Below, one piece after another: positions 17,696-44,167 of a stretch of 64,000 nucleotides of DNA. The number at the start of each line of letters is the position of its first letter. The stretch's first letter is position 1. Source of the DNA: Rhodovulum sulfidophilum (GTDB taxonomy: Bacteria; Pseudomonadota; Alphaproteobacteria; Rhodobacterales; Rhodobacteraceae). The position numbers and the translations under genes are program-made. The notes below the pieces were generated by a model. That model was not told the origin of the DNA. It searched no databases and saw only the letters and a list, made by a program, of their open reading frames with translations. Where the stretch lies: NCBI GenBank assembly GCA_003241785.1, contig QFPW01000013.1:53420-117419 (forward strand), written 5' to 3'.

Positions 17696-17744
17696 CCTCC
17701 GCCTCCCCAAGATATGCGCGGAACGCAAATCCGCCCCTTGCCAA

Positions 17745-17789: not shown

Positions 17790-17839
17790 GCGAGCGACCG
17801 GCCCCCGGATGGAGGGGCCCGCGAAGGGAGAAGGCCCCG

Positions 17840-19252: not shown

Positions 19253-19353
19253 CACCCCCCTCGCGGCGGATCCCGCGCCCGGGACCCGCCGCACCCTTTT
19301 TCCCGATTTTTCGCGCCCCCTTTTGGCGGGGGCCGCGCCGAAGGAGATTTGCC

Positions 19354-20178
19354 ATGACCACAGAAGTCGTCACCTATACCGTCGAGAACGGCGTCGCCTG
19401 GGTGCGGTTCAACCGCCCGGAAAAGCGCAACGCGATGAGCCCGACGCTCAACCGGCGCATGATGGAAGTCCTCGACGCGCTCGAGTTCCGCGACGACGTG
19501 GGCGTGCTGGTCCTGACCGGCGAGGGCACGGCCTTCACCGCCGGGATGGACCTCAAGGAATACTTCCGCGAGACCGAGTCGAAGGGCCTCGCCGGCGTGC
19601 GCCAGAGCCAGCGCGAGAGCTACGGCTGGTGGCGCCGGCTGCGCTGGTACCAGAAGGTGACGATCGCGATGGTCAACGGCTGGTGCTTCGGCGGCGGCTA
19701 CGGCCCGCTCTTCGCCTGCGATCTCGCCTTCGCGGCCGACGAGGCGAAGTTCGGCCTCTCCGAGATCAACTGGGGCATCCTGCCCGGCGGCGGCGCGACC
19801 AAGGTGGCGGTCGAGCTGATGCCCTTCCGCCAGGCGATGTACCACGCGCTGCTCGGCGAGCCGATCGACGGCAGGAAGGCGGCGGAATGGGGCCTCGTGA
19901 ACGAGAGCGTGCCGCTCGCCGAGCTCGAGGCCCGGGTGACGGCGGTGGCGCGGGCGCTGCTCGAGAAGAACCCGGTGACGCTCAAGGCGACCAAGGACGC
20001 GGTGCGCCGGGTCGGCGTCATGACCTATGACGAGGCCGAGGACTATCTCGTGCGCGCGCAGGAGGCGGCGAATTCCTACGACAACGACGGTCGCAAGGAA
20101 GGCATCCGCCAGTTCATCGACGAAAAGAGCTACAAGCCGGGTCTCGGCGCCTACGACAAGAGCAAGGTCCGCGCCTGA
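19354..20178 (+). CDS. ech: Hydroxycinnamoyl-CoA (feruloyl-CoA) hydratase/lyase
   Basis: By recall, the 274-aa ORF aligns over almost its whole length with Pseudomonas HCHL. Shared blocks are NRPEKRNAMSPTLNR, TAGMDLKEYFRE, TIAMVNGWCFGGG, FGLSEINWGI, GLVNESVPLA, LLEKNPV and KSYKPGL. Confidence 0.95.
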   Translation: MTTEVVTYTVENGVAWVRFNRPEKRNAMSPTLNRRMMEVLDALEFRDDVGVLVLTGEGTAFTAGMDLKEYFRETESKGLAGVRQSQRESYGWWRRLRWYQKVTIAMVNGWCFGGGYGPLFACDLAFAADEAKFGLSEINWGILPGGGATKVAVELMPFRQAMYHALLGEPIDGRKAAEWGLVNESVPLAELEARVTAVARALLEKNPVTLKATKDAVRRVGVMTYDEAEDYLVRAQEAANSYDNDGRKEGIRQFIDEKSYKPGLGAYDKSKVRA

Positions 20179-20209
20179 GCGCGACGCCCCGGGAGGGAAG
20201 GCAGACACG

Positions 20210-21712
20210 ATGGAAGACTGGATCGCACCCGATCCGGTGGCCCTGCACGCGCAGGGCCGGCCGGAGAAGCTCGCCCTCATGGAGCTCGCGAGCGGCCGCC
20301 GCTGGACCTACGCCGCGCTCGACCAGGCGATCGAGCGCGGAGTCGCCGCGCTCGCGGCGCTTGGCCTCGGGGCCGGCGACCGGATCGCGGTGCTCGCCAA
20401 GAACGCGGCCGATCTTCTGATCGCCCAGCAGGCGGCGATGCGGATGGGCGCGATCTTCGCGCCGCTGAACTGGCGGCTCGCCGCCGCCGAGCTCGGACCC
20501 ATCCTCGCCGATTGCGCGCCGAAGCTCCTGGTGCTCGACGGCACGGTGACGGTGGACGCCCCGCCCGGATGCCGCGCGATCAGCCTCGCGGAGCTCGGCG
20601 CGGCGATCGCCGCGGCGACGCCGGGGCCGCGCCAGCCGGCGCGCCCGGCGGGCGGCGCCTGCGTCATCCTCTACACCTCCGGCACCTCCGGAGTGTCGAA
20701 GGGAGTGATCCTGACGCCGCAGACGCTGTTCTTCACCGGCGTCAACTTCGGCGTGCTCGGCGGCGTGACCGGAGCCTCGGTCTTCCTCTGCGAATCGCCG
20801 ATCTTCCACGTGATCGGCCTCGTCACCTCGATCTGGCCGCCCTTCGTCCAGGGCGGCGCCGTGCTCGTCTCCGCCGGTTTCGACCCCGCGGTCACCAACG
20901 GCCGGCTCGCGGACAAGGCGCTCGGGATCACGCATTACTTCTGCGTGCCGCAGATGGCCGAGGCGCTGCGCTACGCCGAGGGGTTCGACCCCGGGCGCTG
21001 GTCGCTCACCGCGCTCTTCACCGGCGGCGCGCCCAATCCGCCGACCAACATCCGCTGGTGGGTCGATCAGGGCGTGGCGATGGTGGACGGGTTCGGCATG
21101 ACCGAATGCGGCACCGTGCTCGGCATGCCGCTCGATCCCGACCTGATCGCGACCCATGCCGGCGCGGTGGGTCAGGCCGCGCCCGGCACGGCGGTGCGCA
21201 TCGTCGACCTCGGCGAGCGGGACGTGCCCGACGGAGAGGCCGGCGAGATCCTCGTGAAGGGGCCGAACGTCACGCCCGGCTACTGGAACCGGCCGGAGGA
21301 GCGCGCGAAGGCCTTCACCGCCGACGGCTGGCTGCGCACCGGCGACATCGGCCGGCGCGACGCGGATGGCTACATCGCCATCGTCGACCGCCGGAAGGAC
21401 ATGTTCATCTCCGGCGGCGAGAACGTCTATCCGGTGGAGATCGAATCGGTTCTGGTCGAGCATCCGGCGGTGATGGAGGTCGCGGTGATCGGCGTCCCCG
21501 ACGCGCGCTGGGGCGAGGTCGGCCGCGCCTTCGTCGTGCCGAAGCCGGGCGCGCGCCTGACCGAGGAGGAGCTGGCGCGTCACTGCGAGGCCCGGCTCGC
21601 GCGCTACAAGATCCCGCGACGGTTCGAGATCACCGACGCGCTGCCCCGCACCGGCACCGGCAAGATCCAGAAACACGTGCTGCGCGCGGCGACGCTGACG
21701 GACGCGGGCTGA
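20210..21712 (+). CDS. fcs: Feruloyl-CoA synthetase / AMP-dependent acyl-CoA ligase
   Basis: The start MEDWIAPDP follows GGGAGGGAAGG. The AMP-binding motif is ILYTSGTSGVSKGV. C-terminal motifs are GGENVYPVEIE and PRTGTGKIQK. Confidence 0.9.
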   Translation: MEDWIAPDPVALHAQGRPEKLALMELASGRRWTYAALDQAIERGVAALAALGLGAGDRIAVLAKNAADLLIAQQAAMRMGAIFAPLNWRLAAAELGPILADCAPKLLVLDGTVTVDAPPGCRAISLAELGAAIAAATPGPRQPARPAGGACVILYTSGTSGVSKGVILTPQTLFFTGVNFGVLGGVTGASVFLCESPIFHVIGLVTSIWPPFVQGGAVLVSAGFDPAVTNGRLADKALGITHYFCVPQMAEALRYAEGFDPGRWSLTALFTGGAPNPPTNIRWWVDQGVAMVDGFGMTECGTVLGMPLDPDLIATHAGAVGQAAPGTAVRIVDLGERDVPDGEAGEILVKGPNVTPGYWNRPEERAKAFTADGWLRTGDIGRRDADGYIAIVDRRKDMFISGGENVYPVEIESVLVEHPAVMEVAVIGVPDARWGEVGRAFVVPKPGARLTEEELARHCEARLARYKIPRRFEITDALPRTGTGKIQKHVLRAATLTDAG

Positions 21713-22019
21713 GCCTCGCGCGCCGCCGAGTGATGCGATCCCACACAGGCTTCGGCGGGAGGGCCGCGGGCCATCGATGAAGGGAATTCAGGGACCGGCA
21801 TGCCGGAAGACGGCGGCGGGACACCTGACCGACGCCGGTGGTCGCTCGCTCGCCGCCGAGCTTCATGCCGCCATTATGACTGCGATCCTTGCGCGCTTTT
21901 GCCTGGTCGGGCGCGGCGGCATCGACATGTCACGACGCGGTTTCCGTCGATGGCGAGATGAGCCGGTCGCGGATGCCGCGCGCCGCGTGCCGGCACGGTC
22001 GATGTGACAAGGCCCCCGC

Positions 22020-22625
22020 TCAGCCAGCCAGGAGCTGGCTGTTGCGCGCCGCCTCCTTGTCGGCGATCTCCCGGGCGCGGGCCAGCACCGCCTCGGCCTC
22101 GGCCGCGGCGATCGCGACGAAACCGTCGCCGTCGAGCATGACGAAGTCGCCGTTGCGCACCAGCGTCCCCCCGATCCGCGCATCGGCGTTGACGGAGGCG
22201 GTGTAGAGCCGCCCCGCGCTTCGGAGCGGAGAGGTCCCGCGGTAGAGCACCGGCATGCGGTGGTGGTGGAGCGTGCCCGCGTCGCGGGTCAGCCCATCGA
22301 GGAGCACGCCCGCCACGCCGCGATTGAAGGCTCGAAGCGAGTGAGCTTCGCCCCACGTGGCGCCCTGCGTGTCACCCTCCACCGACATCACGATGATGTC
22401 GCCCGGCTGGGCGAGGCTGAGCGCCACCTCGGGGTGGCGCAGCGGCTTGTCGCAATCCGCCCGCGACCGGATCGGTCTCTGCGCGAGCGTGAAGGCGCGG
22501 CCGCTCACGCTCGCCTCCGGCCCTCCCGCCCATCGGAGGCCGAACCCGCCCGCGCTCATGTCGCAGCCGAGCGCGTCCGCGGCGTCGGCGAGATGCGTGG
22601 TTCTGATCGGCGTGGTCTCGGGCAT
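22020..22625 (-). CDS. RraA-like / class II (HMG/CHA-type) aldolase-decarboxylase family protein
   Basis: The 201-aa ORF has the blocks GDIIVMSVEGD, GVLLDGLTRDAG and GDFVMLDGDGFVAI. Its start abuts the stop of the upstream PrpD-like gene. Confidence 0.8.
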   Translation of the reverse strand: MPETTPIRTTHLADAADALGCDMSAGGFGLRWAGGPEASVSGRAFTLAQRPIRSRADCDKPLRHPEVALSLAQPGDIIVMSVEGDTQGATWGEAHSLRAFNRGVAGVLLDGLTRDAGTLHHHRMPVLYRGTSPLRSAGRLYTASVNADARIGGTLVRNGDFVMLDGDGFVAIAAAEAEAVLARAREIADKEAARNSQLLAG

Positions 22626-24092
22626 CTACGATTCGCTCCCTAGCGCAGTCTCAGCGGCCGCCGCCGCGGGCATGGGTTCCGGCGCGGGCATGGGCGGCTC
22701 GGGGAGGTTCCGCGCCAGCGCCAGCGCTTCGCGCACGTCCGGCAAGGCCGGAAGCGCCGCCACCGCCTCGAAGGCCCTCGCCGCGCGGGCGGGATCGAGC
22801 CTCGCGCTCGCGGCGCAATCGAGAAACTTCTCGCGCATCTCCGGCCAGCCGAGCGGCTGCGACGGATGGCCCGGCGGCACGTCGACGCGGGCGCTCTGCT
22901 CGGTCCCGTCCAGGAGCCGCGCCGTCACGCGCGCGTGGCCCCGGAAACCCCAACTCAGGTTCGCCGCGACCGGGTCCTCCTCGATCTGCGCGGGGTCTTC
23001 CCAAGCGGAGACCTTCTCGATGATCGCGGCGATCTCCGGACGCCCAACCGCCGGGGTCTCGAAGGTCGCGATGCCGAGCCTTTCATCGAGCAGCGCCGCG
23101 GCGACCGCGTAGGGCATGCTGAACTTGGCCTCGAGTCCGGTTCGGGGTCGCGGATACATGAGCGGCTGCAGCGCCCCGGGCGCGACCGAGACGTCCAGCG
23201 CCGCCAGATTGTCGGCGCGGACGCCCTTCGCCTTCAGGGCCAGGACGGCCGCGATCGCCCGATGCTGCGCGATGCAGGACGGGAAGCGCTTCAGCGTGCT
23301 GCCGGGCTCGAGGACCGCCCAGGGCGCGCCGAGGGCGGGTGCGATCGCCGAAGGATCGGAAGCGGCGTCTCCATAGGCGCGGAAAAACCCGAACTTCGCC
23401 TCGAGCGCGTCGCGGGCCGCGGTCACTCCGGCCTCGGCGAGAAGCATCGCCGTGACCGCCTGCTGCGCGGCCTGCCCGGAGTGCAGCGGCTTCGTCATCG
23501 TGCCGAGCTGGCAGAGCAGTCCGCCGGCGGCGGAGGCGACGAGACCGATCCCCGTCTCGATGCGCTCCGGTGAAAGGCGGTGAAGGTGGGCGAGCGCCGC
23601 GAAGGCGGAAAAGCCCGAAAGCGTCGCGGTCGCGTGATACCCCCGCGCGCCGCGTCCCCGTCCGAGCGCCGCGGCGATCTTCGCGCCGACTTCGATGCCG
23701 ACGACATAGGCGTCGATGAATTCGACCCCCGGCACCTCCCGATCGGGCAGCGCGGAGCAGAGGGCCGCGACCACCACCGCGCTCGGATGCGTCGGCGAGA
23801 GCAGGTCGTCGAAGTCGAGCGCGGCCCCGAACGCGCCGTTGACCATCGCCGCGGTCTGGGGCGTCGCGGTCCAAGCGGTGCCGAGGACGGGGGAAACGCT
23901 CCCCGGCTGGGTCTCGAGATAGGCGGCCATGGCCGGGGCGAGTTCGCTGCCGGCGCCCGCGATGATGCAGGAGACGCTGTCGGCGATCACCAGCCGGGCG
24001 CGCTCGCGCGCGGCCCGTGGCACCGGCGTATCCGTCATCTCGCGGATGAAGGCCGCGACCGCCGCGGTCGGGGTCCGGGCTGTCGGGGTCAT
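22626..24092 (-). CDS. MmgE/PrpD-family protein (copy 1, 488 aa)
   Basis: The internal start MTPTARTPTAAVAAFIREM overlaps the tctC stop (ATGA). PrpD-family blocks are VNGAFGAALDFDD, GYHATATLSGF, TMTKPLHSGQAA and GLEAKFSMPY. Confidence 0.85.
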   Translation of the reverse strand: MTPTARTPTAAVAAFIREMTDTPVPRAARERARLVIADSVSCIIAGAGSELAPAMAAYLETQPGSVSPVLGTAWTATPQTAAMVNGAFGAALDFDDLLSPTHPSAVVVAALCSALPDREVPGVEFIDAYVVGIEVGAKIAAALGRGRGARGYHATATLSGFSAFAALAHLHRLSPERIETGIGLVASAAGGLLCQLGTMTKPLHSGQAAQQAVTAMLLAEAGVTAARDALEAKFGFFRAYGDAASDPSAIAPALGAPWAVLEPGSTLKRFPSCIAQHRAIAAVLALKAKGVRADNLAALDVSVAPGALQPLMYPRPRTGLEAKFSMPYAVAAALLDERLGIATFETPAVGRPEIAAIIEKVSAWEDPAQIEEDPVAANLSWGFRGHARVTARLLDGTEQSARVDVPPGHPSQPLGWPEMREKFLDCAASARLDPARAARAFEAVAALPALPDVREALALARNLPEPPMPAPEPMPAAAAAETALGSES

Positions 24093-25045
24093 TGCTTGCC
24101 CAGCCCCGCTTCCGCGGCGATCGCGTTCCACTTCGCCAGATCGGCCGCGAGATACGCGGCGAAATCCTGTCGGGACCGCTGGCGGAGCGTGAAGGCTTCC
24201 TCCTGCCATTTCTGGCCTTGGCCCTCCGTCGCGCCGAAGGCGGCGACCTCGGCGTTGAGTTTGTCGGCGATCTCGTCGGGCAGGTCCTTTGGCCCGAACA
24301 GACCGAACCAGATCAGCACCTCGAACCCCGGATAGGTTTCCGCGACGGCGGGCACGTCCGGCAGCGTCGCCGGACGCTCCCGCGAGGTGACGGCGAGCGG
24401 TCGGACCATGCCCTGCTGGATATTGCCGATCACGATGGAGAGCGAACTGATGGCGACGGGTATGTCGCCGCGCACGAGGTCGATCAGGGCCGGGCCGAAC
24501 TGCTTGTAGTTGGCATGTCGCATCTCGACGCCCGCGGCGTCGGACAGAAGCTCCCCCGCGAGCACGGTCGAATTGCCGACCGATCCGTAGAGCAGCCCGT
24601 CGGGGCTGTCCTTCGCGAGCGCGACCATCTCGGCGAAAGTTTCCGCCTCGAAGTTCGGCCCCGACGTCAGCACCATCGGCGTATCGCCCAGATAGGCGAC
24701 GGGCGTGAAGTCTCCGATCGGATCATAGGTCAGGTTGGGATCCGTCGCGGGACCGACGGAATGCGTCGAGCCCCCGCCGATCAGGAGGGTGTAGCCGTCC
24801 GGCTCCGCGTCGCGGACGTCCTGCGCCCCTACCGCGCCATTGCCACCGGCCTGGTTTTCCACGATCACCGCCTCCCCCAGACGGGTCGACAGATGCTCCG
24901 CGAGATCCCGGCCGAGACGGTCGATCGTCCCACCGGCGGGATAGGGCACCACGAGGGTAATCGGATGGTCGGGGTAGTCCGCCGCCGCCAGCGCGGGCAT
25001 GAATCCGAGGCACAGCGCCGCGGTTCGCGTCAGTTTCTCAAGCAT
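24089..25045 (-). CDS. tctC: Tripartite tricarboxylate transporter substrate-binding protein (Bug/TctC family, copy 1)
   Basis: The start MLEKLTRTAALCLGFMPALAAA is a signal peptide preceded by AAGGAAGGAGGG. The family block is YPDHPITLVVPYPAGGTIDRLGR...VIVENQAGGNG. An alternative start at 25072 overlaps the tctA stop. Confidence 0.85.
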   Translation of the reverse strand: MLEKLTRTAALCLGFMPALAAADYPDHPITLVVPYPAGGTIDRLGRDLAEHLSTRLGEAVIVENQAGGNGAVGAQDVRDAEPDGYTLLIGGGSTHSVGPATDPNLTYDPIGDFTPVAYLGDTPMVLTSGPNFEAETFAEMVALAKDSPDGLLYGSVGNSTVLAGELLSDAAGVEMRHANYKQFGPALIDLVRGDIPVAISSLSIVIGNIQQGMVRPLAVTSRERPATLPDVPAVAETYPGFEVLIWFGLFGPKDLPDEIADKLNAEVAAFGATEGQGQKWQEEAFTLRQRSRQDFAAYLAADLAKWNAIAAEAGLGKQ

Positions 25046-25068
25046 TCCTTCCTCCCTTTCGGTATCGC

Positions 25069-26574
25069 TCATTCAGCGTCCTGGAAGATCACCTCGCGCT
25101 GCTTGCGAAAGCTGGGCGCGACGAGCAGGACGAGCAGCGCGGCGGCGGCGACGAGCAGGGTCAGGCTGATCGGCCGTGTCAGGAAGACGCTGACGTCGCC
25201 CTGCGAGATCGTCAGCGCGCGGCGCAGGTTCTCCTCCATCAGCGGGCCGAGGATGAAGCCGAGGATGAAGGGCGCCGGCTCGCAGTCGCACTTGACGAGA
25301 ACGTAGCCGAGCGCGCCGAAGCCGAAGGCGGCCATCACGTCGAAGGTCGCGTTGCTCAGGCTGTAGAGGCCGATCGAGGTGAAGAGCAGGATCGCCGGCA
25401 GGAGCAGCCTGTAGGGCACCTTCAGAAGCTTCACCCAGAGCCCGACGAGCGGCAGGTTCAGAATGACGAGGATGATGTTCCCGATCACCATCGAGGCGAT
25501 GAGGCCCCAGAAGAGCTCGGGCTGGCGCGACATGATCATCGGGCCCGGCTGGATGTTGTGGACCGTCATCGCGCCGATCATGAGCGCCATGGTCGAGGTC
25601 GCCGGGATGCCGAGCGTCAGCATCGGGATGAACGAGGTCTGCGCCGCGGCGTTGTTCGCGGATTCCGGCCCGGCGACCGCCTCGATCGCACCCTTGCCGA
25701 AGCGCGACGGGTCGCGCGCCACCTTCTTCTCGATCGAATAGCTCGCGAAGGAGGCCAGGACCGCGCCCCCGCCCGGCAGGAGGCCGAGCAGCGCGCCGAT
25801 TCCGGTTCCGCGCAGGACGGGCAAGACCGCAGCGCGGAACTGCGCGCCCGTCAGCCAAAGGCCGCCGACCTTGCTCGTGACCACGCCGGTATCCGGCGGG
25901 GATTCGAGATTGCGCATGAGTTCGGCGAGGCCGAAGACGCCCATGGCGACGACGGCGATCTCGAACCCGTCGATGAGGTTGAGGCTGCCGAAGGTGAACC
26001 GCGCCGCGCCGGAGTTGACGTCGGTGCCCACCGTGCCGAGCAAGAGGCCGAGAAGGACCATCGCGATCGCCTTGGCGGGCGAGCCATGGGCGAGCACGAC
26101 GGCGCCGAGCAGCCCGAGGACCACGAGCGAGAAGTATTCCGGCGCGCCGAAGTAGAAGGCGACGCCCGCGAGCACCGGCCCGAAGGCCGCGATCAGCACG
26201 GTGCCCACGATGCCGGCGAAGAGCGAGCCGAGCGCGGCGACCACCAGCGCGGCGCCGGCCTCGCCCTTCTTGGCCATCGCGTGCCCGTCGATCGCCGTCA
26301 CGACGGAGGAGCTTTCCCCCGGCAGGTTGACGAGGATCGCCGTGGTCGAACCGCCGTACTGCGCGCCGTAGTAGATGCCCGCGAGCATGATGAGCCCGGT
26401 GACCGGCGACAGGACGTAGGTGACGGGCAACAGCATCGAGATGGTCGCGACCGGCCCGATCCCGGGCAGAACGCCGACGAGCGTGCCGAGCAACGCCCCG
26501 AGAAAGGCGAAGCCGAGATTCTGGACGCTGAAGGCGACCTCGAAGCCGACGAGAAGGTTGTGGAACATTTCCAT
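25069..26574 (-). CDS. tctA: Tripartite tricarboxylate transporter large permease
   Basis: The 501-aa polytopic protein starts MEMFHNLLVGFEVAFSVQNLGFAFLGALLGTLVGVLPGIGP, typical of TctA. Confidence 0.9.
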   Translation of the reverse strand: MEMFHNLLVGFEVAFSVQNLGFAFLGALLGTLVGVLPGIGPVATISMLLPVTYVLSPVTGLIMLAGIYYGAQYGGSTTAILVNLPGESSSVVTAIDGHAMAKKGEAGAALVVAALGSLFAGIVGTVLIAAFGPVLAGVAFYFGAPEYFSLVVLGLLGAVVLAHGSPAKAIAMVLLGLLLGTVGTDVNSGAARFTFGSLNLIDGFEIAVVAMGVFGLAELMRNLESPPDTGVVTSKVGGLWLTGAQFRAAVLPVLRGTGIGALLGLLPGGGAVLASFASYSIEKKVARDPSRFGKGAIEAVAGPESANNAAAQTSFIPMLTLGIPATSTMALMIGAMTVHNIQPGPMIMSRQPELFWGLIASMVIGNIILVILNLPLVGLWVKLLKVPYRLLLPAILLFTSIGLYSLSNATFDVMAAFGFGALGYVLVKCDCEPAPFILGFILGPLMEENLRRALTISQGDVSVFLTRPISLTLLVAAAALLVLLVAPSFRKQREVIFQDAE

Positions 26575-26578
26575 GAGC

Positions 26579-27055
26579 TTACCTCCAGGGCAGCAGCGGA
26601 GCCTGGAGGCCCAGCCCGTAGACGAACAGGAAGCCCGCGGTGACCGAAAGCACCGCCGCGCTGATCGCGACCTCGCGCCATCGCCGATCCCTCGGCGCCA
26701 CCCCCGCGACCAGGACGAGCAGGGCGGAGGCGACGATGAGGCCGAAGCCCCGGAGCGTGAGCACGAAGAGGAACATCGCGGCGAAAACGCTCACGATCGG
26801 GCGGAGCGGCAGGCGGAGCGGTTCGTCCCGGCCATCCGACAGCGCCTCGGTCGCGCCCCTGACCCCGATGCCGACGGCGAGGCAGAACAGCAGCGCGCTG
26901 ACGATCCGGGGAAAGAAGCCCGGCCCCATGTCCATCGGGCTGCCGAAGGACAGCCGCAGCGATGTCACGAAGAATGCGCCGGCCGCGATCGCGATCAGGA
27001 CCGCCGAGACGACGTCCTTGTTTCGCGCCACGCGTCGCGCGGTTTCCATGTTCAT
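26579..27055 (-). CDS. tctB: Tripartite tricarboxylate transporter small permease
   Basis: The 158-aa protein has four hydrophobic segments and lies directly upstream of tctA. Confidence 0.75.
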   Translation of the reverse strand: MNMETARRVARNKDVVSAVLIAIAAGAFFVTSLRLSFGSPMDMGPGFFPRIVSALLFCLAVGIGVRGATEALSDGRDEPLRLPLRPIVSVFAAMFLFVLTLRGFGLIVASALLVLVAGVAPRDRRWREVAISAAVLSVTAGFLFVYGLGLQAPLLPWR

Positions 27056-27074
27056 CTTTTCCTCCCCCGAAATG

Positions 27075-28469
27075 TCACGCCCGCCGCAGGGACCGCAGCA
27101 GGCCCGACAGGTCTTTGCTTTCGTTGCATGCGAACAGTTCGATCCCCGCCGCGCGCGTCGCCGCCTCCGTCAGGCCCGCGTAGCGCGCGCAGATCTCGAA
27201 TTTCGCGCCGAGCTCCGCGCGGGAAAGCGGGCGCGCCGGGGTTCCCGGCGCCTTGGCCACGCGCTCCTCAAGGCGCGCGCCATCCCGCGTCGTGATCGCG
27301 ATCTGAGTATAGCCCCGCGCGCCCGAGATCTCCCCGCTCGCCTCGCCGATCCCCTCCTCGCAGGCGGGATCCTCGTGGCAGGTCACCAGGCGCAGGTTCG
27401 ACTGCGCGACCTCGCGCAGGACCGCCGCGTCGGCGAAGCTCGCGAGCGTGATCTCGCCGTCCAGCATCGCGGCGAGGAAGCAGTATTCCATGCTGAACTT
27501 CGCCTGCAGCCCGGTGCGGGGCCGCGAATAGACCATGTTCACCAATCCCTTCGGGGGCAGCCGGCATTCGATCCCCGCGACATCCGCGAGGCGCAGTCCG
27601 TGACGCTCGCGCAGGATCAGCGTGGCCTCGATGCCGCGATGCGCGGCGAAGCAGCACGGGTATTTCTTCAGCGAGACGCCCGGGCTCGACATCGCCCAGG
27701 GATCGGCGATGTTCTCTGTGAGCCGTTCGATCCTGGAATTGGCTGTGCCATAGGCGTTGAAGAAGCCGCGAGGCGCTTCGAGGATATCCTCCGCTCCCCT
27801 GAGGCCGGAGGCGACCAGGTCGGCCGCCGCGGTCGCATTGCGCGCCGCCCAGCCGGAATGGAAGGCTTTCATCTCCGACCCCGTCTGGCCGAGCAGGCCC
27901 GAGGCGAAGGAGCTGTAGATCGCGAGCGTTTGCGCCGCCCCTTCGACGCCCGACCGGCGCAGTCGCGCGAGCGCCGCGGCGGCGCCCATGCCCCCGAGGG
28001 TCCCGGTCGCGTGAAAGCCGCGGACGCGGTGGTGCTCGAGCGAGATCGCGATCCCCATCCGGGCCGCCACCTCGTAGCCGACGATGAAGGCGTCGGTAAG
28101 TTCGGCGCCGGAGACCGGCCGGCGTGCGATCTCGCCGATCAGCGCGGCCAGGATCACCGCCGCCGGGTGACCCGGCATCATCGAGAAGACATCGTCGAAT
28201 TCGAGCGCGTGACCGAACGCGCCGTTGATCATGGCCGCGATCTCGGGGGAGGTCATCAGGGAGGTGCCGAGCACCGGGACCTTCCCCGCCGCGCCCGACA
28301 TTCTGGCGTAGTCGAGCAGCGCGGGGGCCGCTTCGCCGCCCGCGCCGGAGATGATGGCGGCGAAGGTGTCGATGATGATCCGGTTCGCCTCGGCGCGGAG
28401 TTCGGGCGGCTGAGCGCTCGCGGGTGACCCCACGATGAACTCCGCCAGCGATCGGGTGATCGGCTTCAT
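27075..28469 (-). CDS. MmgE/PrpD-family protein (copy 2, 464 aa)
   Basis: It carries the same family blocks as copy 1 (INGAFGHALEFDD, GFHATGTLGGM, SEMKAFHSGWAA, GLQAKFSMEY). It is otherwise clearly divergent and lacks the Ala/Pro-rich tail. Confidence 0.85.
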   Translation of the reverse strand: MKPITRSLAEFIVGSPASAQPPELRAEANRIIIDTFAAIISGAGGEAAPALLDYARMSGAAGKVPVLGTSLMTSPEIAAMINGAFGHALEFDDVFSMMPGHPAAVILAALIGEIARRPVSGAELTDAFIVGYEVAARMGIAISLEHHRVRGFHATGTLGGMGAAAALARLRRSGVEGAAQTLAIYSSFASGLLGQTGSEMKAFHSGWAARNATAAADLVASGLRGAEDILEAPRGFFNAYGTANSRIERLTENIADPWAMSSPGVSLKKYPCCFAAHRGIEATLILRERHGLRLADVAGIECRLPPKGLVNMVYSRPRTGLQAKFSMEYCFLAAMLDGEITLASFADAAVLREVAQSNLRLVTCHEDPACEEGIGEASGEISGARGYTQIAITTRDGARLEERVAKAPGTPARPLSRAELGAKFEICARYAGLTEAATRAAGIELFACNESKDLSGLLRSLRRA

Positions 28470-28509
28470 GGTCGTACCTGCTTGACGGCGGACGCGATTG
28501 GCGCGGCGG

Positions 28510-29472
28510 CTACTGGGAAAGGCCGAGTCCGTCGATGAGCGGAATCCAGGTCGCGAAATCCGCGTCGAGCACCTTCCGGAAGCTCGCGGCCGAGGGATCC
28601 TCGGCCGGCAGAAACCCCTGCGCTTCGATCACGCCGAGGAATTCGGGGCTCTTCAGGACCTTCGCGAGCGCGCCTTCGAGGACCGCCACCTTTTCGTCGG
28701 AAACCCCCGCCCCGGTCATCAGCCCATACCAGGTGATCATGTCGATGCCCGGATACCCCGCCTCCGCCGTCGTGGGCACCCCGGGCAGCTGCGCGGAATG
28801 GCGATGGTCGATGATCGCGAGCGGCGTGATCATCCCGCTCTCCAGGAAGGGGGGCAACGTCGCGACATTGGCGAACACCACGTCGATATTGCCTGCCTGC
28901 AGGTCGGTCAGCGCGGGCGCCAGACCCTTGTAGGGCACATGGACGAGGGTGCCGCCGGTTTCCTTGGCGAAGAGGGCTCCCGCGAGATGCAGCGCGGTGC
29001 CGACGCCGGGGCTGCCGTATGTGAGCTTCGGCTCCTCCCTGGAGCGCGCGACGAGACCCGCGAAGTCGGTGACGCCGAGCGAGGCGCGCACGACGGCGGC
29101 CGATTGCGCCTCCGCGACCTGGCCGATGGGCCGCATGTCTTCCAGCACGTCGTAGGGCAGATCGTAGACACCGGCCGCGAAGACCAGCGAGCCGTTGCCG
29201 CCGAGCACGACGGTGTATCCGTCGGGCTCCGCCGCCGCCGCGAGCCCGACGCCGATCGAGCCGCCGGCGCCCGCGTGGTTCTCGACGATGACCGAGGTGC
29301 CCAGTGCCTTGCCGAGGCCGTCCGCCACGGCGCGGGCGAGCGCGTCGCTCGCGCCGCCCGCCGCGAAGGGCGCGATCAGGGTGATCGGCCGATCCGGATA
29401 GCTCTCCGCGCGGGCCGCGAACGCGGCGAAGGCGGCGAGAATGAAAGCGGCGGTTCCGACGGTTTTTTTCAT
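28510..29472 (-). CDS. tctC: Bug/TctC-family substrate-binding protein (copy 2)
   Basis: The internal start MKKTVGTAAFILAAFAAFAARA is a signal peptide preceded by GGGGAGGAA. The family block is YPDRPITLIAPFAAGGASDALAR...VIVENHAGAGG. Confidence 0.85.
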   Translation of the reverse strand: MKKTVGTAAFILAAFAAFAARAESYPDRPITLIAPFAAGGASDALARAVADGLGKALGTSVIVENHAGAGGSIGVGLAAAAEPDGYTVVLGGNGSLVFAAGVYDLPYDVLEDMRPIGQVAEAQSAAVVRASLGVTDFAGLVARSREEPKLTYGSPGVGTALHLAGALFAKETGGTLVHVPYKGLAPALTDLQAGNIDVVFANVATLPPFLESGMITPLAIIDHRHSAQLPGVPTTAEAGYPGIDMITWYGLMTGAGVSDEKVAVLEGALAKVLKSPEFLGVIEAQGFLPAEDPSAASFRKVLDADFATWIPLIDGLGLSQ

Positions 29473-29495
29473 GATTTCCTCCCCTGTGACCGATG

Positions 29496-30386
29496 CTAGA
29501 AAACGCGGATTCCGCGCGTCCGTGTCCTGAGCCTGAAGATCGCCGAGGACGTGGCGAAGAACAGCTCCGACCGGTCCGCGCCGCCGAAGCAGAAGTTGCG
29601 GCATTGGTCCGGTGTCCGGATGACGCCGATCAGGTCGCCGGACGGGTGGAACACGTGCACGCCGGCCGGACCGGTGCAGTAGATCCTGCCTTGCTCGTCC
29701 ACCTTCAGGCCGTCGGCCTTGCCCGGCTCCGTCCCTTCGAGCCTTGCGATTACCTCGCCCCCGGTCAGCGTGCCATCGGCCGCGAGGTGGAAGCGGCGAA
29801 TATGGTCGCGAGGCGTGTCGTTGACCAGGAGCGATGTCTCGCCGGGTTCGAAGCACAGGCCGTTCGGCTGTTCGAAATCGCTCGCCATCAGCGAAATCGT
29901 TCCGTCCGGATCGAGGCGATAGACCCCGCGATGGTCCTGAGGGATGGGGCGCGCCACGCCGGCGGCGGGACTGGTGCGGCCGTAGGTCGGGTCGGTGAAC
30001 CAGATCGCGCCCTTGCCGTCGACGACGAGGTCATTGGGGCTGTTGAGCTCCTTGCCCGCGTGATGCGTCGCCAGCACCGTCACGTAGCGGCCGTCCGGCT
30101 CCCAGCGGGTCACGCTGCTCGTCGCATGCTCGCAACTGACGATCCGGCCCTCGGCGTCGACGAAATTGCCGTTGGTGATGTTGCTTGGCGTCCTGATGAC
30201 CGAGGTGCCGTCCGCCTCGCTCCACTTGTAGACCTTGCCGTGCGCCATATCGGAGAAGATCAGGTAGTCTTCCCGATGATGCCAGATGATGCCCTCGGTC
30301 AGCTTGTAGCCTTCGGAGACGGCGTCCATGCGCGCGTCCGGCGCGATGAGGGCTTCCAGAGCCGCGTGGGATTTGTCGAAGATCAT
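29496..30386 (-). CDS. SMP-30/gluconolactonase/LRE-family lactonase-like protein
   Basis: The internal start is MIFDKSHAALEAL. Beta-propeller blocks are EGIIWHH, SPNDLVVDGKGAIWFTDP, QPNGLCF and ADGLKVDEQGRIY. Confidence 0.8.
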   Translation of the reverse strand: MIFDKSHAALEALIAPDARMDAVSEGYKLTEGIIWHHREDYLIFSDMAHGKVYKWSEADGTSVIRTPSNITNGNFVDAEGRIVSCEHATSSVTRWEPDGRYVTVLATHHAGKELNSPNDLVVDGKGAIWFTDPTYGRTSPAAGVARPIPQDHRGVYRLDPDGTISLMASDFEQPNGLCFEPGETSLLVNDTPRDHIRRFHLAADGTLTGGEVIARLEGTEPGKADGLKVDEQGRIYCTGPAGVHVFHPSGDLIGVIRTPDQCRNFCFGGADRSELFFATSSAIFRLRTRTRGIRVF

Positions 30387-30402
30387 CACTAGTCCTTGCC
30401 TT

Positions 30403-31008
30403 TCACGACTGGAGCGGGCGGGTCGCGGCGACGGAGGCGCGGGCATTCCGCGCGTCCGCCCATTTCGCGAGTTGGGGATGCGTGCCGCGCCAGTCCCGCT
30501 GGCCCGCGCGGGCGTCCATCCAGCCGAGCGCGCAGACCGCCGCGATGGCGCCGATGTCGAAGACCTCGCCGCGTCGCGGAAGCGCGGCCTCGAGCGCGGC
30601 GAGACAATGGTCGACCTTGGCCCATTGCGCGGCCTCGTAGTCCGGCCATCGCTTCTCGGCCGCCTTGCCGCGCTCGATCGTCGCGAGAACGCCGGCGGTG
30701 ACCAGCGCGTCGGCCGTCGCGTTGAGCGTCAGCGCCGCGCGACGCTCCGGGTGCGTGGCGGGAATGACGCGCGGCGAAGCCTCCAGCTCGTCGAGGTAGT
30801 CGCAGATCACGAGTGAGTCGAAGACGGCGGCGCCGTCGTCCAGGACCAGTGTCGGGATCTTGCCGCTCGGATTGAGACGCAGGAGCTCCGCGTTGATCTT
30901 TCCCTGACCGACCGCGGCCGGCTCGATCTCGACCGGCAATCCCTTCTCGTGGACGCAGATCATCACCTTCCGCACATATGGCGAAAGCTTCCCGTGCAGG
31001 ATTTTCAA
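30403..31008 (-). CDS. Glutathione S-transferase family protein
   Basis: The thioredoxin-fold N-terminus reads KILHGKLSPYVRKV...GKIPTLVLDDG..FDSLVICDYL. I place the start at TTG 31008, preceded by GGGAGA at 5-6 nt. The ORF-track ATG at 31065 adds an atypical basic 19-aa extension. Confidence 0.75.
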   Translation of the reverse strand: MKILHGKLSPYVRKVMICVHEKGLPVEIEPAAVGQGKINAELLRLNPSGKIPTLVLDDGAAVFDSLVICDYLDELEASPRVIPATHPERRAALTLNATADALVTAGVLATIERGKAAEKRWPDYEAAQWAKVDHCLAALEAALPRRGEVFDIGAIAAVCALGWMDARAGQRDWRGTHPQLAKWADARNARASVAATRPLQS

Positions 31009-31078
31009 GAGATTCTCCCAAGTGCCTTTTTGGGTCACCCTGCGCTTCCGCGGCGCGTCAGTCAATTATAAATCGCGC

Positions 31079-31108
31079 ATTGTGAGATTTTATCGAAAAA
31101 ATCACAAT
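31079..31108. promoter_or_regulatory. Candidate operator: inverted repeat ATTGTGA-N16-TCACAAT
   Basis: Perfect 7-bp arms (31079-31085 and 31102-31108), flanked by partly complementary T/A runs, lie in the AT-rich GST / IclR divergent intergenic region. Confidence 0.45.
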
Positions 31109-31171
31109 GTGTGGATTCCAGATATGCTCCAGATGCGGAATGTGAAAAAAGACGGGCTGGGAGGCATGAGG

Positions 31172-31954
31172 ATGGATGGAAGCGACGCGCGTGGTCGAGC
31201 AAGCAGCACCAGGATGCTGGCGGCTCTGGACCTTTTCTCGGTGGAACGGCCCGTCATCAGCGCGATGGACATCGGCGCGGAACTCAGCTTGCCGCGGGCG
31301 ACGACCTATAGGCACCTGAAGACACTCTGCGAGGCGGGACTTCTGCTCCGCCTCGGGAACAGCGACTTTTGCCTTGGTCCGCGGATCGTCCAGCTCGACC
31401 GGCAGATCCAGCTCTCCGATCCACTGATCGCCGCCAGCCGCGCGCCCATGGTGGAATGTCTGCGAACGCAGGGCTGGGACGGCATGTTGCTCTGCAGCTT
31501 TGTGCGCGACTTCGTCCTCTGCACGCATCAGGAGGTTCGACCCGGTTCCGAAATCCAGCTGAAACGCGCGCGGGGCATCCCCTTTCCGATGTTCCACGGA
31601 CCCGCCTCCCTCATCATCGCGGCGCACCTGCCCATCGGGCGGGTGCGCGAACTCTATATCCGGGCGCTGGAGGAGGACGGCGCCTCGGCGCGGGCTCTCG
31701 GCCCCGACTGGGACAGCGCCCGGAAGCGTCTGCGCGCGATAAAGCAGCGGGGGTTCGTGGTCTCGCAGAACGAGTTCCAGACCGGAATGACGGGCGTCAG
31801 CGCGCCGATCTTCGATTCGAAGCACGGAATCGTGGGCAGTGTCTCGGCCGTGCTCGGTCCGGCGGTGACCGGCCAGGACGAAGCCAAGATGGGGCGAGGC
31901 ATCCTGGACTGCGCGAGAACGATCACGGATCGATTGGAGAAGCGGATCGGTTGA
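31172..31954 (+). CDS. IclR-family transcriptional regulator
   Basis: The HTH reads ISAMDIGAELSLPRATTYRHLKTLCEAGLL. The effector domain carries GMTGVSAPIFD. ATG 31172 has GGAGG 7 nt upstream. In-frame alternative starts are at 31166, 31133 and 31124. Confidence 0.8.
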   Translation: MDGSDARGRASSTRMLAALDLFSVERPVISAMDIGAELSLPRATTYRHLKTLCEAGLLLRLGNSDFCLGPRIVQLDRQIQLSDPLIAASRAPMVECLRTQGWDGMLLCSFVRDFVLCTHQEVRPGSEIQLKRARGIPFPMFHGPASLIIAAHLPIGRVRELYIRALEEDGASARALGPDWDSARKRLRAIKQRGFVVSQNEFQTGMTGVSAPIFDSKHGIVGSVSAVLGPAVTGQDEAKMGRGILDCARTITDRLEKRIG

Positions 31955-32033
31955 CCGGCGAACCGGGGCCCCCGTTCGCCGCGCCGAGGAACCAGCCCCC
32001 GTCTGGACTCGAGTTCCGGGGGTGCCGTTCCGG

Positions 32034-32070
32034 CCTTCCGCGGGCCGGAACGGCGCTTTTCGCGCGGCCG
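32034..32070 (+). terminator. Rho-independent terminator downstream of the IclR gene
   Basis: A perfect 12-bp stem GCCGTTCCGGCC / GGCCGGAACGGC has a 7-nt loop and is followed by GCTTTTC. Confidence 0.7.
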
Positions 32071-32419
32071 GAATGCGCGCGCCTGGAAAACCGGCGCGCA
32101 AGCCCGCCGCCCGGCACGATTGACCCATCCCGATCCGCCAGCGGGCGCGAGGCCCGCCGTGAGCTGCGCCACCAGATGGAGGAGGATCGCGCCGGGGGCG
32201 GGCCTTCGTCGGAATCTCCTCCAGTGCGTCGCCCGGCGGCTGATAACGCGAAGCCCGAAATCTGTGCAGCGCGCGCTCGAGGTGGCCGCGCTTTCATCGT
32301 TCGATGCCTTGGCCCGGCCGAGCGTCTATTTTTTAGTATTACGAATTGATTTTTTGATGAGTATGAATTTTGCCCGTCCCGGACGTGGCGAAGTTTTCAT
32401 CGTATTCAGCGGGCTTTGT

Positions 32420-33646
32420 ATGGACCGATCAATCCTTCTCGCCTCCCTCCTGGTAGCCGGCGCGGCGCTCACCCCCGTCCATGCCGAGGAAACCGAGGTT
32501 TTGCACTACTGGACATCGGGAAGCGAGGCGGCCGCGCTGGCCCGGATCGCAGAGGCCTTCGAGGCCAAGGGCGGCGTCTGGAAGGACCTGCCGGTGGCCG
32601 GTTTCGAGGCCGAGCGGACCGTGGCCATGACGCGCTTCGCCGGCGGCACGCCGCCCGCGGCGATGCTGACCGAACTCGGGCAGGAGACGAACAAGCTCGC
32701 GGAGGCCGGCGTGCTGCGCGACCTGACCGAGATCGCGACGGCGGAAAACTGGGACGCCGTTTTGCCGCGCCCGGTCGCGGACGCGGTGAAGGTGGACGGC
32801 GCCTTCTTCGCGGTGCCGGTCGATATCGGCGGGCGGAACTGGATGTACACCTCGCCGAAGGTCCTCGCCGAGGCGGGCGTCGCGGCGCCGACGACCTGGG
32901 AGGAGTTCTTCCCCGCCGCCGAGGCGATCAAGGCCAAGGGGCATATCCCGCTCGCGCTCGGCGGCGAGAGCTGGCAGGAGGCGATCCTGTTCTCGGCCGT
33001 CCTCGCGGGCGTCGGCGGCAACGACTTCTTCAAGGCGATCTACGAGGACGCCGACGCCGACGCCGCCCGATCGGACAAGATGGTCGAGGTCTTCGACACC
33101 TTCCGGCGCCTGGGCGGCTACGTCGATCCCGGCAGCCCCGGCCGCGCCTGGAACGACACCACCAATCTCGTCATCACCGACCAGGCCGGCATGATCATCA
33201 TGGGCGACTGGGCCAAGGGCGAGTTCGTCTCGGCGGGCAAGACGGCGGGCGCGGATTTCGGCTGCGCGCTCGCGCCCGGGACCGCGCATTTCTACGACGC
33301 CATCGTCGACGCCTTCGTCTTCCCGACCGTGAAGGGCGACGCCTCGGCGCAGGACATGCTCATCGCGACGATGATGGATCCGGCGACACAGGTGGCCTTC
33401 AACCGCGTCAAGGGCTCGCTGCCGCCCCGGAGCGACGCCGACACCGCCGCGCTCGACGCCTGCGCCGTCCTCGGCGCGACGACCATGGCCGATCCCGAGA
33501 CCTATGTTCCGGCGATTGCCAGCCGCCCGACCAACGACGTCTCGGGCCAGCTCGAGGATATCGTGTCCGGGTTCTGGAACGACCCCGCCATGACCTCCGC
33601 CGACGCCGCCGAGGCCTACGCGGCGGTGCTCGAGAGCGTCGAGTGA
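32420..33646 (+). CDS. ABC sugar transporter substrate-binding protein (family 1 SBP)
   Basis: The internal start MDRSILLASLLVAGAALTPVHA is a signal peptide. The body is typical of CUT1 SBPs (EVLHYWTSG..., IPLALGGESWQ, MGDWAKGEF). Confidence 0.85.
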   Translation: MDRSILLASLLVAGAALTPVHAEETEVLHYWTSGSEAAALARIAEAFEAKGGVWKDLPVAGFEAERTVAMTRFAGGTPPAAMLTELGQETNKLAEAGVLRDLTEIATAENWDAVLPRPVADAVKVDGAFFAVPVDIGGRNWMYTSPKVLAEAGVAAPTTWEEFFPAAEAIKAKGHIPLALGGESWQEAILFSAVLAGVGGNDFFKAIYEDADADAARSDKMVEVFDTFRRLGGYVDPGSPGRAWNDTTNLVITDQAGMIIMGDWAKGEFVSAGKTAGADFGCALAPGTAHFYDAIVDAFVFPTVKGDASAQDMLIATMMDPATQVAFNRVKGSLPPRSDADTAALDACAVLGATTMADPETYVPAIASRPTNDVSGQLEDIVSGFWNDPAMTSADAAEAYAAVLESVE

Positions 33647-44095: not shown

Positions 44096-44167
44096 CGTCT
44101 TCTCCGTTCGGTTCGTTTCGGCCGCGCGGCTTCGCAAGCGCGCGCGGGCAGTCTCGGACCCGCGAGG

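Follow-up and report, generated by a model that had tools for sequence, protein, structure and literature searches.

The window analysed here, 64,000 nucleotides of contig QFPW01000013.1 (assembly GCA_003241785.1, positions 53,420 to 117,419 of the forward strand), carries a genuine, rare and order-conserved operon in which known superfamilies occur in a combination not described before. Nine closely spaced genes on the minus strand (window 22020-31008) are transcribed in the order GST > SGL > TctC2 > PrpD-A > TctB > TctA > TctC1 > PrpD-B > RraA-like. They encode a glutathione S-transferase (GST), a putative lactonase of the SMP-30/gluconolactonase type (SGL), a tripartite tricarboxylate transporter (TTT) with two binding proteins, two MmgE/PrpD paralogues and an RraA-like protein, and a gene for an IclR-family regulator is divergent from them. 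The gene set looks like a TTT-linked, IclR-associated catabolic operon that would work by hydrolysis, isomerisation and (de)hydration followed by C-C cleavage, and most likely it imports a lactone-forming polycarboxylic acid and degrades it to pyruvate. We give a probability of roughly 0.6 to the reading that the genes form one catabolic operon for a carboxylated lactone, horizontally mobile and probably IclR-controlled. The RraA-like product was identical to PZQ48178.1 (DI556_15260) from a metagenome-assembled genome (MAG) labelled Rhodovulum sulfidophilum at NCBI.

The operon, its regulator gene and the region between them were mapped as follows (window coordinates):

22020-22625, minus strand: RraA-like protein, 201 aa, last gene of the operon (PF03737, 80 bits, cutoff 24.5)
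22626-24092, minus strand: PrpD-B, MmgE/PrpD protein, 488 aa (PF03972 and PF19305)
24089-25072 (alternative start 25045), minus strand: TctC1, predicted periplasmic solute-binding protein (PF03401, 184 bits)
25069-26574, minus strand: TctA, large membrane subunit of the TTT (PF01970, 496 bits)
26579-27055, minus strand: TctB, small membrane subunit of the TTT (PF07331, 71 bits)
27075-28469, minus strand: PrpD-A, MmgE/PrpD paralogue, 464 aa (PF03972 and PF19305)
28510-29472, minus strand: TctC2, second predicted periplasmic solute-binding protein (PF03401, 185 bits)
29496-30386, minus strand: SGL, SMP-30/gluconolactonase-type putative lactonase, 296 aa (PF08450, 170 bits)
30403-31008, minus strand: GST, YibF-like, 201 aa, TTG start, first gene of the operon (GST_N_2, GST_N_3 and GST_C_2)
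31009-31165, no strand: divergent promoter/operator region, 157 bp, with an inverted repeat and a promoter-like site
31166-31954, plus strand: IclR-family regulator, 262 aa (HTH_IclR and IclR_C), ATG preceded by GGAGG

The spacing of the genes agreed with the original prediction, made from this DNA alone, of nine minus-strand genes with gaps of 0-40 nt or ATGA overlaps: counted upward from the RraA-like gene, the measured gaps were 0, -4, -4 (+23 with the alternative TctC1 start), +4, +19, +40, +23 and +16 nt. Pfam placed all ten proteins, those of the nine-gene operon and the IclR protein, well above its curated cutoffs and in the families that had been named, including the complete TctA, TctB and TctC families of the proposed tricarboxylate (TTT) importer, and the IclR gene was divergent from the operon as described.

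The gene set was syntenic across bacterial orders. In Ensifer sp. YR511 all ten genes were present in the same order and orientation, with amino acid identities of 48-84% to the window, and each protein was the reciprocal best match of its window counterpart (TctA 84%, SGL 76%, TctC2 64%, TctC1 and PrpD-A 63%, TctB and the divergent IclR 62%). The ten-gene layout was also found by gene calls in Ensifer sp. ENS05, where the DNA was ~79% identical to the YR511 locus across the layout. Sinorhizobium sp. RAC02 carried a shorter form, IclR / TctC-PrpD-TctB-TctA-SGL-GST-RraA, with unrelated genes on its flanks, and four enzymes therefore appear to suffice. This strain supplied the one record, unannotated, that was returned by a protein-mode search of plasmids; in a megablast of the operon against plasmids only tctA matched, at 72-79% identity. 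The YR511 copy lies on FNGR01000026.1, where PrpD-B is WP_090300238.1, and the RAC02 copy at ~627-635 kb of NZ_CP016452.1; the protein accession for ENS05 is WP_192443408.1. The RraA-like subfamily gave 13 matches in an indexed search of 5.8 billion proteins and 14 representatives at E<=1e-30 in an exhaustive search of 1.84 billion proteins, and a motif scan of the GTDB representative genomes for this family returned zero relatives. A PrpD-motif scan of the GTDB representatives found 80 loci at 42-50% identity, none of which had the GST/RraA module, and these loci therefore supply no functional context.

Comparison of the related loci, referred to below by our own numbers where they must be told apart, revealed an anatomy of a lower core (TctC1, PrpD-B and the RraA-like protein) and an upper add-on (lactonase and GST, with or without TctC2 and PrpD-A). 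The gene order was TctA-ALDH-SGL-GST-RraA-PrpD-TctC in L001 (ALDH, aldehyde dehydrogenase), PrpD-TctC / IclR-TctC-Amidohydro_2-GST-RraA in L005 and L104, SGL-GST-RraA / IclR / TctC-PrpD-TctB-TctA on the P0010 contig and GST-TctC2-PrpD-A-TctC1-PrpD-B-RraA in L092, in which the lactonase was not found. The core TctC1-PrpD-B-RraA occurred without the add-on in L007 and L101, and also on contigs too short or incomplete to judge the add-on (L097, L100 and L094/L095). Lactonase and GST were seen as an add-on only in loci that also carried the RraA-like gene. A GST orthologue was present in nine distinct loci, every one of which (9/9) had an RraA-like and a PrpD gene, and L092 was the one locus in which it did not adjoin a lactonase gene. 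In short variants, lactonase, GST and RraA genes lay side by side with 4-nt overlaps.

The paralogues followed the same division. PrpD-B orthologues, 52-66% identical, adjoined the RraA-like gene or shared its locus in Ensifer, L001, L005, L100 and L101, and TctC1 was paired with PrpD-B in the related loci. PrpD-A was accessory, being found only in the long operon forms and always after TctC2, with orthologues in Ensifer YR511 and L092 (61% identity for the latter). The closest relatives of TctC2 in related loci adjoined a GST, lactonase or PrpD gene; beyond Ensifer the best were a TctC of L005 beside Amidohydro_2-GST (43%) and a TctC of L001 beside PrpD (41%).

One metagenome contig (L007, 1-6241) was 100% identical to window 21415-26384 and then became abruptly different inside tctA, with the joint at ~26385-26491. 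Upstream of the joint it encoded a different TctB and, divergently, a PrpB-like protein of the isocitrate lyase (ICL)/phosphoenolpyruvate (PEP)-mutase fold, an HD-domain protein and a TctC, which replaced PrpD-A, TctC2, SGL and GST. This break raised the worry that the window was an assembly chimera. Two independent read sets, L008 (SRR5420290) and L009 (ERR12726589), reproduced the window arrangement at 100% identity, and a chimera was ruled out because L009, a separate read set from another sample, crosses the joint at 100% identity. The L007 form is therefore a natural alternative arrangement, which marks a module boundary, and its break resembles a recombination joint within a conserved transporter gene.

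The G+C content of the window was ~70% overall; it was 65-70% over most of the operon (window 24001-32000) against 71-73% in the upstream 12-24 kb, and 57.6% in the Ensifer locus. Horizontal acquisition is one possible explanation of the contrast.

The RraA-like protein was aligned with the HMG/CHA aldolase of Pseudomonas putida, 3noj (HMG, 4-hydroxy-4-methyl-2-oxoglutarate; CHA, 4-carboxy-4-hydroxy-2-oxoadipate), in which Asp102, Arg123, Asp124 and Glu199 are metal- and pyruvate-binding residues. Its residues E93, R114, D115 and E191 fell on D102, R123, D124 and E199' (P. putida numbering). These aligned catalytic residues were invariant or nearly so in 10 family members, the replacement of Asp102 by Glu being conservative, and the protein also carried the N-terminal extension of aldolase-type members. 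Its assignment as the RNase E regulator RraA was rejected (NF006875, 27.9 bits against 136; length 201 aa against an expected ~160 aa). As to whether this protein groups with the HMG/CHA aldolases rather than with RraA, the catalytic residues were kept and the RraA model failed, but the LigK/PcmE equivalog TIGR02798 failed as well (51.8 bits against 304.5), as did NF006731/PRK09262 (61.1 against 179), and the best PDB match was the uncharacterised 3k4i and not 3noj. The protein is predicted to be a divalent-metal-dependent retro-aldolase or beta-keto-acid decarboxylase that forms pyruvate, and not a LigK orthologue.

PrpD-A and PrpD-B were 41% identical to each other, and both had the two domains of the family (N domain 147-174 bits, C domain 103-106 bits, cutoff 32.1). 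For both, the closest solved relatives were the iminodisuccinate (IDS) epimerase 2hp0 (PrpD-B 188 bits, PrpD-A 199 bits) and Bacillus subtilis YxeQ, 7bra. The residues D93, H103, H159, K207 and K272, in cis-aconitate decarboxylase (CAD) numbering, were kept in PrpD-A (with E at 93), in PrpD-B and in 11/11 aligned relatives. In MmgE/PrpD members this acidic/His/Lys set binds a 1,4-dicarboxylate and stabilises an enolate, and the activities characterised as of 2025 are those of 2-methylcitrate dehydratase, cis-aconitate decarboxylase, IDS epimerase and methylsuccinate isomerase (PMC12290011). The two proteins were rejected as 2-methylcitrate dehydratases, as PrpD-A scored 32.9 bits against 950 with the equivalog and PrpD-B had no match. 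Tyr145, the second base of the IDS epimerase, was replaced by Arg in PrpD-A and by Gly in PrpD-B, and was kept in the homologues of L005, L104 and RAC02. Its absence from the window proteins favours a one-base reaction (hydration, dehydration or decarboxylation), a suggestion that is soft because the single-PrpD variants retain the Tyr.

The GST was YibF-like (4ibp, 130 bits), with Pfam N and C domains, and its Ser motif LSP(F/Y)VRK and glutathione (GSH)-binding motif NPxGKIP were invariant in seven orthologues. It fell short of the zeta-class MaiA model TIGR01262 (44.9 bits against 171) and was rejected as a dehydroascorbate reductase, its catalytic residue being Ser and not Cys. The protein is predicted to be a GSH-dependent isomerase.

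The SGL domain covered profile positions 1-245/246, and its closest solved relatives were the putative or exported gluconolactonases 3e5z and 3dr2 (E 1e-50 to 1e-48). No N-terminal signal peptide was read from the SGL sequence, and the enzyme is therefore probably cytoplasmic. Three types of protein filled the lactonase slot among the loci: the window-type SGL, a 23%-identical SGL (L001 and RAC02) and an Amidohydro_2 protein (L005, L104 and L094/L095), whose best family matches were L-fucono-1,5-lactonase and 4-sulfomuconolactone hydrolase. The Amidohydro_2 protein was rejected as LigI-like, as it reached only E = 3.5e-4 with the putative 2-pyrone-4,6-dicarboxylate (PDC) hydrolase 2ffi and its best family was fuconolactonase. 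All three types were nearest to hydrolases of saturated sugar lactones.

TctA, TctB and TctC were encoded together, TctC twice, and TctC1 was only 35% identical to TctC2. The hydrophobic N-terminal stretch of TctC1, which ends in ALAAA, and a similar stretch read in TctC2 suggest that both have a signal peptide. Against solved TctC structures TctC1 scored 93-168 bits and TctC2 73-185 bits (170-173 for TctC2 with terephthalate-binding proteins), and because the scores to all solved TctC proteins were alike they were uninformative as to the ligand.

A consensus scan of the operon stretch found a sole promoter-like site, which lies between GST and IclR at 31115-31087 and would serve the operon; terminator-like matches elsewhere in the scanned stretch were no more frequent than by chance (3 found, 4.0 expected). 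The -10 hexamer of this site was overlapped by an inverted repeat, the arms of which (31078-31091 and 31096-31109, 14 nt each) were 86% complementary (CATTGTGAGATTTT-ATCG-AAAAAATCACAATG), which bore out the repeat that had been placed at 31079-31108. The blocks GATAAAATCTCA, GCGATTT and TTGAC were identical between the intergenic regions of the window and Ensifer YR511, and the latter had its own inverted repeat, AATCGCATAATAT/ATTTTATGCGATT. Alignment with Ensifer also reassigned the GST start, now placed at the TTG of 31008, on the basis of a shared GGGAG-N6-TTG/GTG AAA AT(C/T). No Rfam family was matched in window 21000-32500. Both domains of the IclR protein were above cutoff (HTH_IclR 31.4 bits, C-terminal effector domain 28.5 bits), the PcaR/PcaU subfamily model was not reached (52 against a cutoff of 285), and an IclR gene also flanked the module in L005, L104, RAC02, L091 and the P0010 contig. 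The operon is probably under IclR control.

From the protein families and the anatomy of the loci we infer an order of steps, a role for the GST, a type of reaction for each PrpD, the products and the regulation. TctA and TctB, with two binding proteins, would import two forms of the substrate, the lactone through TctC2 and an open-chain di- or tricarboxylate through TctC1. In the cytoplasm the SGL lactonase would open the ring, and the Ser-type, YibF-like GST, with glutathione, would isomerise the ring-opened product by a cis/trans or an allylic/keto-enol shift to the substrate of the core. The MmgE/PrpD enzymes would then act on a succinate-type (1,4-dicarboxylate) backbone by way of an enolate, probably in a hydration or dehydration; PrpD-A may alternatively catalyse a decarboxylation or a stereo-variant reaction, and PrpD-B would make or rearrange a 2-oxo acid. 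The RraA-like enzyme would finish with an Mg2+-dependent retro-aldol cleavage or beta-decarboxylation, giving pyruvate together with oxaloacetate, a semialdehyde or CO2. IclR, bound to the palindrome of the divergent promoter, would repress the operon until an intermediate builds up.

Two features of the anatomy bear on this scheme. The GST is tied to the lactonase and missing from the core-only loci, which suggests that the product of ring opening is an isomer of the core substrate, for example a cis- in place of a trans-unsaturated acid. The occurrence of TctC1-PrpD-B-RraA alone, with its own binding protein, implies that the substrate of the core comes from outside, which would be awkward for 4-oxalomesaconate (OMA). 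The general claim of the original prediction, a self-contained catabolic unit for a lactone-forming polycarboxylate, was supported by the cross-order synteny, the RAC02 unit, the lactonase-type slot and the catalytic residues of the RraA-like protein.

Several observations weigh against such a unit or against parts of the scheme. No enzyme of the operon reached any curated equivalog cutoff, and every activity is therefore read from its superfamily only. The L007 contig holds the lower half with a different upstream context, and the two halves of the operon can therefore exist separately. The relatives of the lactonases act on saturated sugar lactones, after which an isomerisation step is not expected, and a literature search gave no characterised precedent for a GST that acts after a lactonase and before a PrpD-type enzyme. 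The Tyr145 of the single-PrpD variants means that the PrpD reaction may differ between variants or may be an isomerisation.

Among the other explanations, it is conceivable, though on balance unlikely, that the operon serves a saturated di- or tricarboxylic hydroxy acid in equilibrium with its lactone. Candidates would be hydroxycitrate with its lactones, the lactone of isocitrate or homocitrate, 2-hydroxyparaconate/itatartarate and acids of the tartrate type. The lactone would enter through TctC2 and the free acid through TctC1; after ring opening by the lactonase, PrpD-B would dehydrate the hydroxy acid as PrpD does 2-methylcitrate, and the RraA-like enzyme would decarboxylate or cleave an oxaloacetate-type 2-oxo acid (oxaloacetate, oxalosuccinate). 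HMG/CHA aldolases have oxaloacetate decarboxylase activity, a point that we count in its favour. The hierarchy of the loci would be explained, with the core serving the free acid and the lactonase add-on the lactone, and enzymes that hydrolyse saturated sugar lactones are the nearest relatives of each of the three lactonase types. The epimerase Tyr is absent from both window PrpDs, and core-only loci carry other tricarboxylate-type enzymes, namely PrpB-like lyases and TcuA-like flavoproteins. Citrate-like dehydration is the archetypal MmgE/PrpD reaction (PMC12290011), and the consulted passages of PMC9875883 give no catabolic route for 2-hydroxyparaconate/itatartarate. However, the GST would be left without a function, although RraA-like and PrpD genes are present in every GST locus and translational coupling links the GST to the lactonase or RraA genes. 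There is also no direct evidence for any of the named substrates, and a literature search on hydroxycitrate catabolic genes came back empty. A saturated hydroxy-polycarboxylate or its lactone, for which we would tentatively claim only a modest likelihood, explains the hierarchy and the lactonase affinities better than PDC does, and leaves the GST unexplained.

The specific pathway of the original prediction, a non-orthologous lower pathway of protocatechuate 4,5-cleavage, appeared doubtful. In it, imported PDC would be opened to OMA by the SGL in the role of LigI, the GST would take the place of LigU, a PrpD would hydrate the product to 4-carboxy-4-hydroxy-2-oxoadipate in the place of LigJ, and the RraA-like enzyme, in that of LigK, would release pyruvate and oxaloacetate. 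Its appeal lies in the chemistry: each of the four steps has one matching enzyme, four being also the exact number of enzymes in the RAC02 copy, the RraA-like protein shows the LigK fold and catalytic residues, and OMA is the oxalyl analogue of aconitate in a family that acts on aconitate-type, succinate-backbone substrates (PMC12290011). In addition, the Amidohydro_2 protein in the lactonase slot of some variants belongs to the superfamily of LigI. The same enzymes also supplied the objections, as the LigK/PcmE and PRK09262 models failed (52 against 304.5 and 61 against 179) with 3k4i and not 3noj as the best PDB match, the Amidohydro_2 protein matched 2ffi so distantly with fuconolactonase as its best family, and the SGL was closest to gluconolactonases. 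Furthermore, a standalone core with its own binding protein would need free OMA or 2-keto-4-carboxy-3-hexenedioate (KCH) as an environmental nutrient, and the second PrpD would be left without a role.

The genomic context of the operon, which had been part of that proposal, was divided in its support. Window 17249-21712 is a hydroxycinnamate side-chain-cleavage cluster by its gene families, with a MarR regulator divergent from genes for an aldehyde dehydrogenase, a p-hydroxycinnamoyl-CoA hydratase/lyase (HCHL) and an acyl-CoA synthetase. The HCHL passed its equivalog cutoff (464 bits against 276) and the acyl-CoA synthetase scored 664 against 696. The adjacency of ferulate genes, predicted at about 300 bp, was therefore real, with the cluster ending 307 bp from the operon and its HCHL genuine, but the cluster is convergent with the operon and was not found beside it in the Ensifer or Sinorhizobium loci. 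Nor was any ring-cleavage dioxygenase, LigAB, LigC, LigI, LigJ, LigU or gallate-dioxygenase-type gene seen in the annotated flanks (~10 kb) or in window 9.9-64 kb; this survey covered the loci with annotated flanks and that part of the window, some short contigs being screened only against the proteins of the module itself. The failure of the LigK model, the sugar-lactonase affinity, the lack of ring-cleavage families in these flanks and the unconserved ferulate adjacency together spoke against the PDC/OMA/CHA assignment. We would thus give only an outside chance to the idea that GST and MmgE/PrpD enzymes replace the PrpF-type isomerase and amidohydrolase-type hydratase in a route from an imported tricarboxylate of the pyrone or unsaturated lactone kind, PDC for instance, to pyruvate and oxaloacetate.

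It is also improbable that the operon consists of two unrelated TTT modules, [GST-SGL-TctC2-PrpD-A-TctB-TctA'] and [TctB-TctA-TctC1-PrpD-B-RraA], that serve different substrates and were joined inside tctA by recombination. The switch of L007 inside tctA to a different TctB and a PrpB-like/HD/TctC set would be consistent with such a fusion, as would the presence of the lower module alone in several loci and the separate TctC and PrpD of each half. However, the upper genes were never seen without the lower, and all GST loci hold RraA-like and PrpD genes in several gene orders. The fused layout has been kept between the Rhodobacterales-labelled MAG and two Ensifer strains despite a protein divergence of 16-52%, the lactonase, GST and RraA genes of the short variants are adjacent with 4-nt overlaps, and there is one promoter-like site and one regulator gene.

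Very improbable, finally, is a heteroatom-substituted succinate, either an opine- or iminodisuccinate-like N-(1,2-dicarboxyethyl) compound or an S-succinyl/glutathione adduct, on which the PrpDs would act as epimerases or eliminases while the GST adds or removes a thiol: both PrpDs have IDS epimerase and YxeQ as their closest solved relatives, the epimerase Tyr persists in single-PrpD variants and opine-type genes lie near L092, YR511 and other Ensifer copies, but the Tyr is absent from both window PrpDs, the conserved module contains no C-N lyase or oxidase, the opine-type neighbours vary by locus and lie outside the operon, and the lactonase and the RraA-type C-C lyase would have no obvious role.

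Several further features were observed at or near the related loci. An unusual expansion of the RraA-like family was found in ENS05, with three tandem RraA-like genes immediately upstream of the operon IclR (L103 1-1688) and four further paralogues at a second locus (L003/L004 433-1089, 6111-6866, 10001-10600 and 15723-16502), where the neighbours were TTT, ATP-binding cassette (ABC) and opine-oxidase-like genes. An aldehyde dehydrogenase gene accompanied the module in L001 (896-2368) and in L091 (2694-4110), the copy in L091 being apparently split by a frameshift. The L001 enzyme, whose gene heads that variant, passed the cutoff of the succinate-semialdehyde dehydrogenase (SSADH) subfamily (688 bits against 646), which hints that the second product is a semialdehyde in some variants. 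Fragments of class III aminotransferases (106-157 aa) adjoined the module on two unrelated metagenome contigs (L005 66-539 and the P0010 contig 8376-8696) and may be pseudogene remnants. An octopine/nopaline dehydrogenase-family gene was divergent from the L092 operon (L092 2911-3996), a Cucumopine_C-domain protein was encoded ~2 kb downstream of the Ensifer YR511 copy (L099 14082-15014), and opine-oxidase-like genes and SBP_bac_5 ABC systems were present in Ensifer loci.

Beyond the operon, the window is a patchwork of catabolic islands. A VanA-like Rieske oxygenase, a cyclase-family protein and a branched-chain-type ABC transporter were encoded at 43247-50610, and a CoxG-like protein, a nitrilase-family protein and two xanthine-dehydrogenase-type molybdopterin subunits at 53279-58864. 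A TonB-dependent receptor with an N-terminal STN domain, of the FecA signalling type, was located at 9921-12443; the open reading frames just upstream of it (8262-9884) may be a sigma/anti-sigma pair.

A literature search found no paper that links MmgE/PrpD with RraA-like proteins or describes the gene set, in keeping with the earlier remark that it was not recognisable as a characterised system. Four enzyme subfamilies without an assigned function are joined in this one conserved operon, namely the YibF-like GST, two IDS-epimerase-like MmgE/PrpD clades and a rare RraA-like clade, and identification of the substrate would therefore annotate several at once and would extend the short list of MmgE/PrpD reaction types. 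Cultured rhizobia that are amenable to genetics carry the operon (Ensifer sp. YR511 and ENS05, Sinorhizobium sp. RAC02), which makes direct tests possible. If a PDC-type route were true, it would provide the first MmgE/PrpD hydratase function on an aromatic ring-fission product and the first physiological role for YibF-like GSTs. Were the substrate to be a lactone acid from lignin or plants, PDC or another, the engineering of funnelling pathways for such compounds would gain an alternative set of enzymes.

Among known systems, LigI-LigU-LigJ-LigK and GalD-GalB-GalC are alike in logic, with lactone hydrolysis, isomerisation, hydration and a class II aldol cleavage to pyruvate. The RraA-like fold of LigK/GalC, with its catalytic Arg-Asp, acidic residue and Glu, is common to the final enzyme of the operon, and the substrate class is likewise tricarboxylate. 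In contrast, the operon has an SGL beta-propeller or a distant Amidohydro_2 protein and not LigI, a GST and not the PrpF-fold LigU, an MmgE/PrpD protein as hydratase candidate and not the amidohydrolase LigJ, and an aldolase-like protein that fails the LigK model. A second PrpD and a second binding protein are further differences, as is the lack of ring-cleavage genes in the annotated flanks.

The two-domain architecture and conserved acidic/His/Lys residues of the 2-methylcitrate cycle enzyme and other MmgE/PrpD members are common to both PrpDs of the operon. As with PrpD and PrpB, a PrpD is paired here with a C-C lyase, and some core-only loci carry a PrpB-like gene; however, the partner lyase of the operon is RraA-like and not of the ICL/PEP-mutase fold, and the PrpD equivalog gave 33 against 950. 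Compared with IDS epimerase and YxeQ, the identity of the operon PrpDs is low and Tyr145 has become Arg (PrpD-A) or Gly (PrpD-B).

The non-phosphorylative sugar-acid routes (Dahms, glucarate/galactarate) resemble the proposed scheme in their order of lactonase, dehydratase and pyruvate-forming aldolase. The SGL and Amidohydro_2 proteins of the operon are nearest to sugar lactonases, and an aldehyde dehydrogenase goes with the module in L001 and L091. The operon differs from these routes in its candidate dehydratase, which is MmgE/PrpD and not of the enolase, IlvD/Edd or GarD type, in its RraA-like and not DapA/HpcH-type aldolase, in its TTT uptake and in the inclusion of a GST.

The maleylpyruvate and maleylacetoacetate isomerases, zeta GSTs of gentisate and homogentisate degradation, are a further likeness, being Ser-type cytosolic GSTs in catabolic operons; the GST of our operon may similarly stand beside a hydrolytic step that would yield a cis-unsaturated acid. 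Unlike them, it is YibF-like (4ibp 130 bits; MaiA 45 against 171) and has no dioxygenase or FAH-type hydrolase in its operon. Terephthalate uptake systems of the TphC/TpiBA type share the complete TctA/TctB/TctC set beside catabolic genes and a divergent IclR gene, whereas the operon described here provides two binding proteins for one membrane unit.

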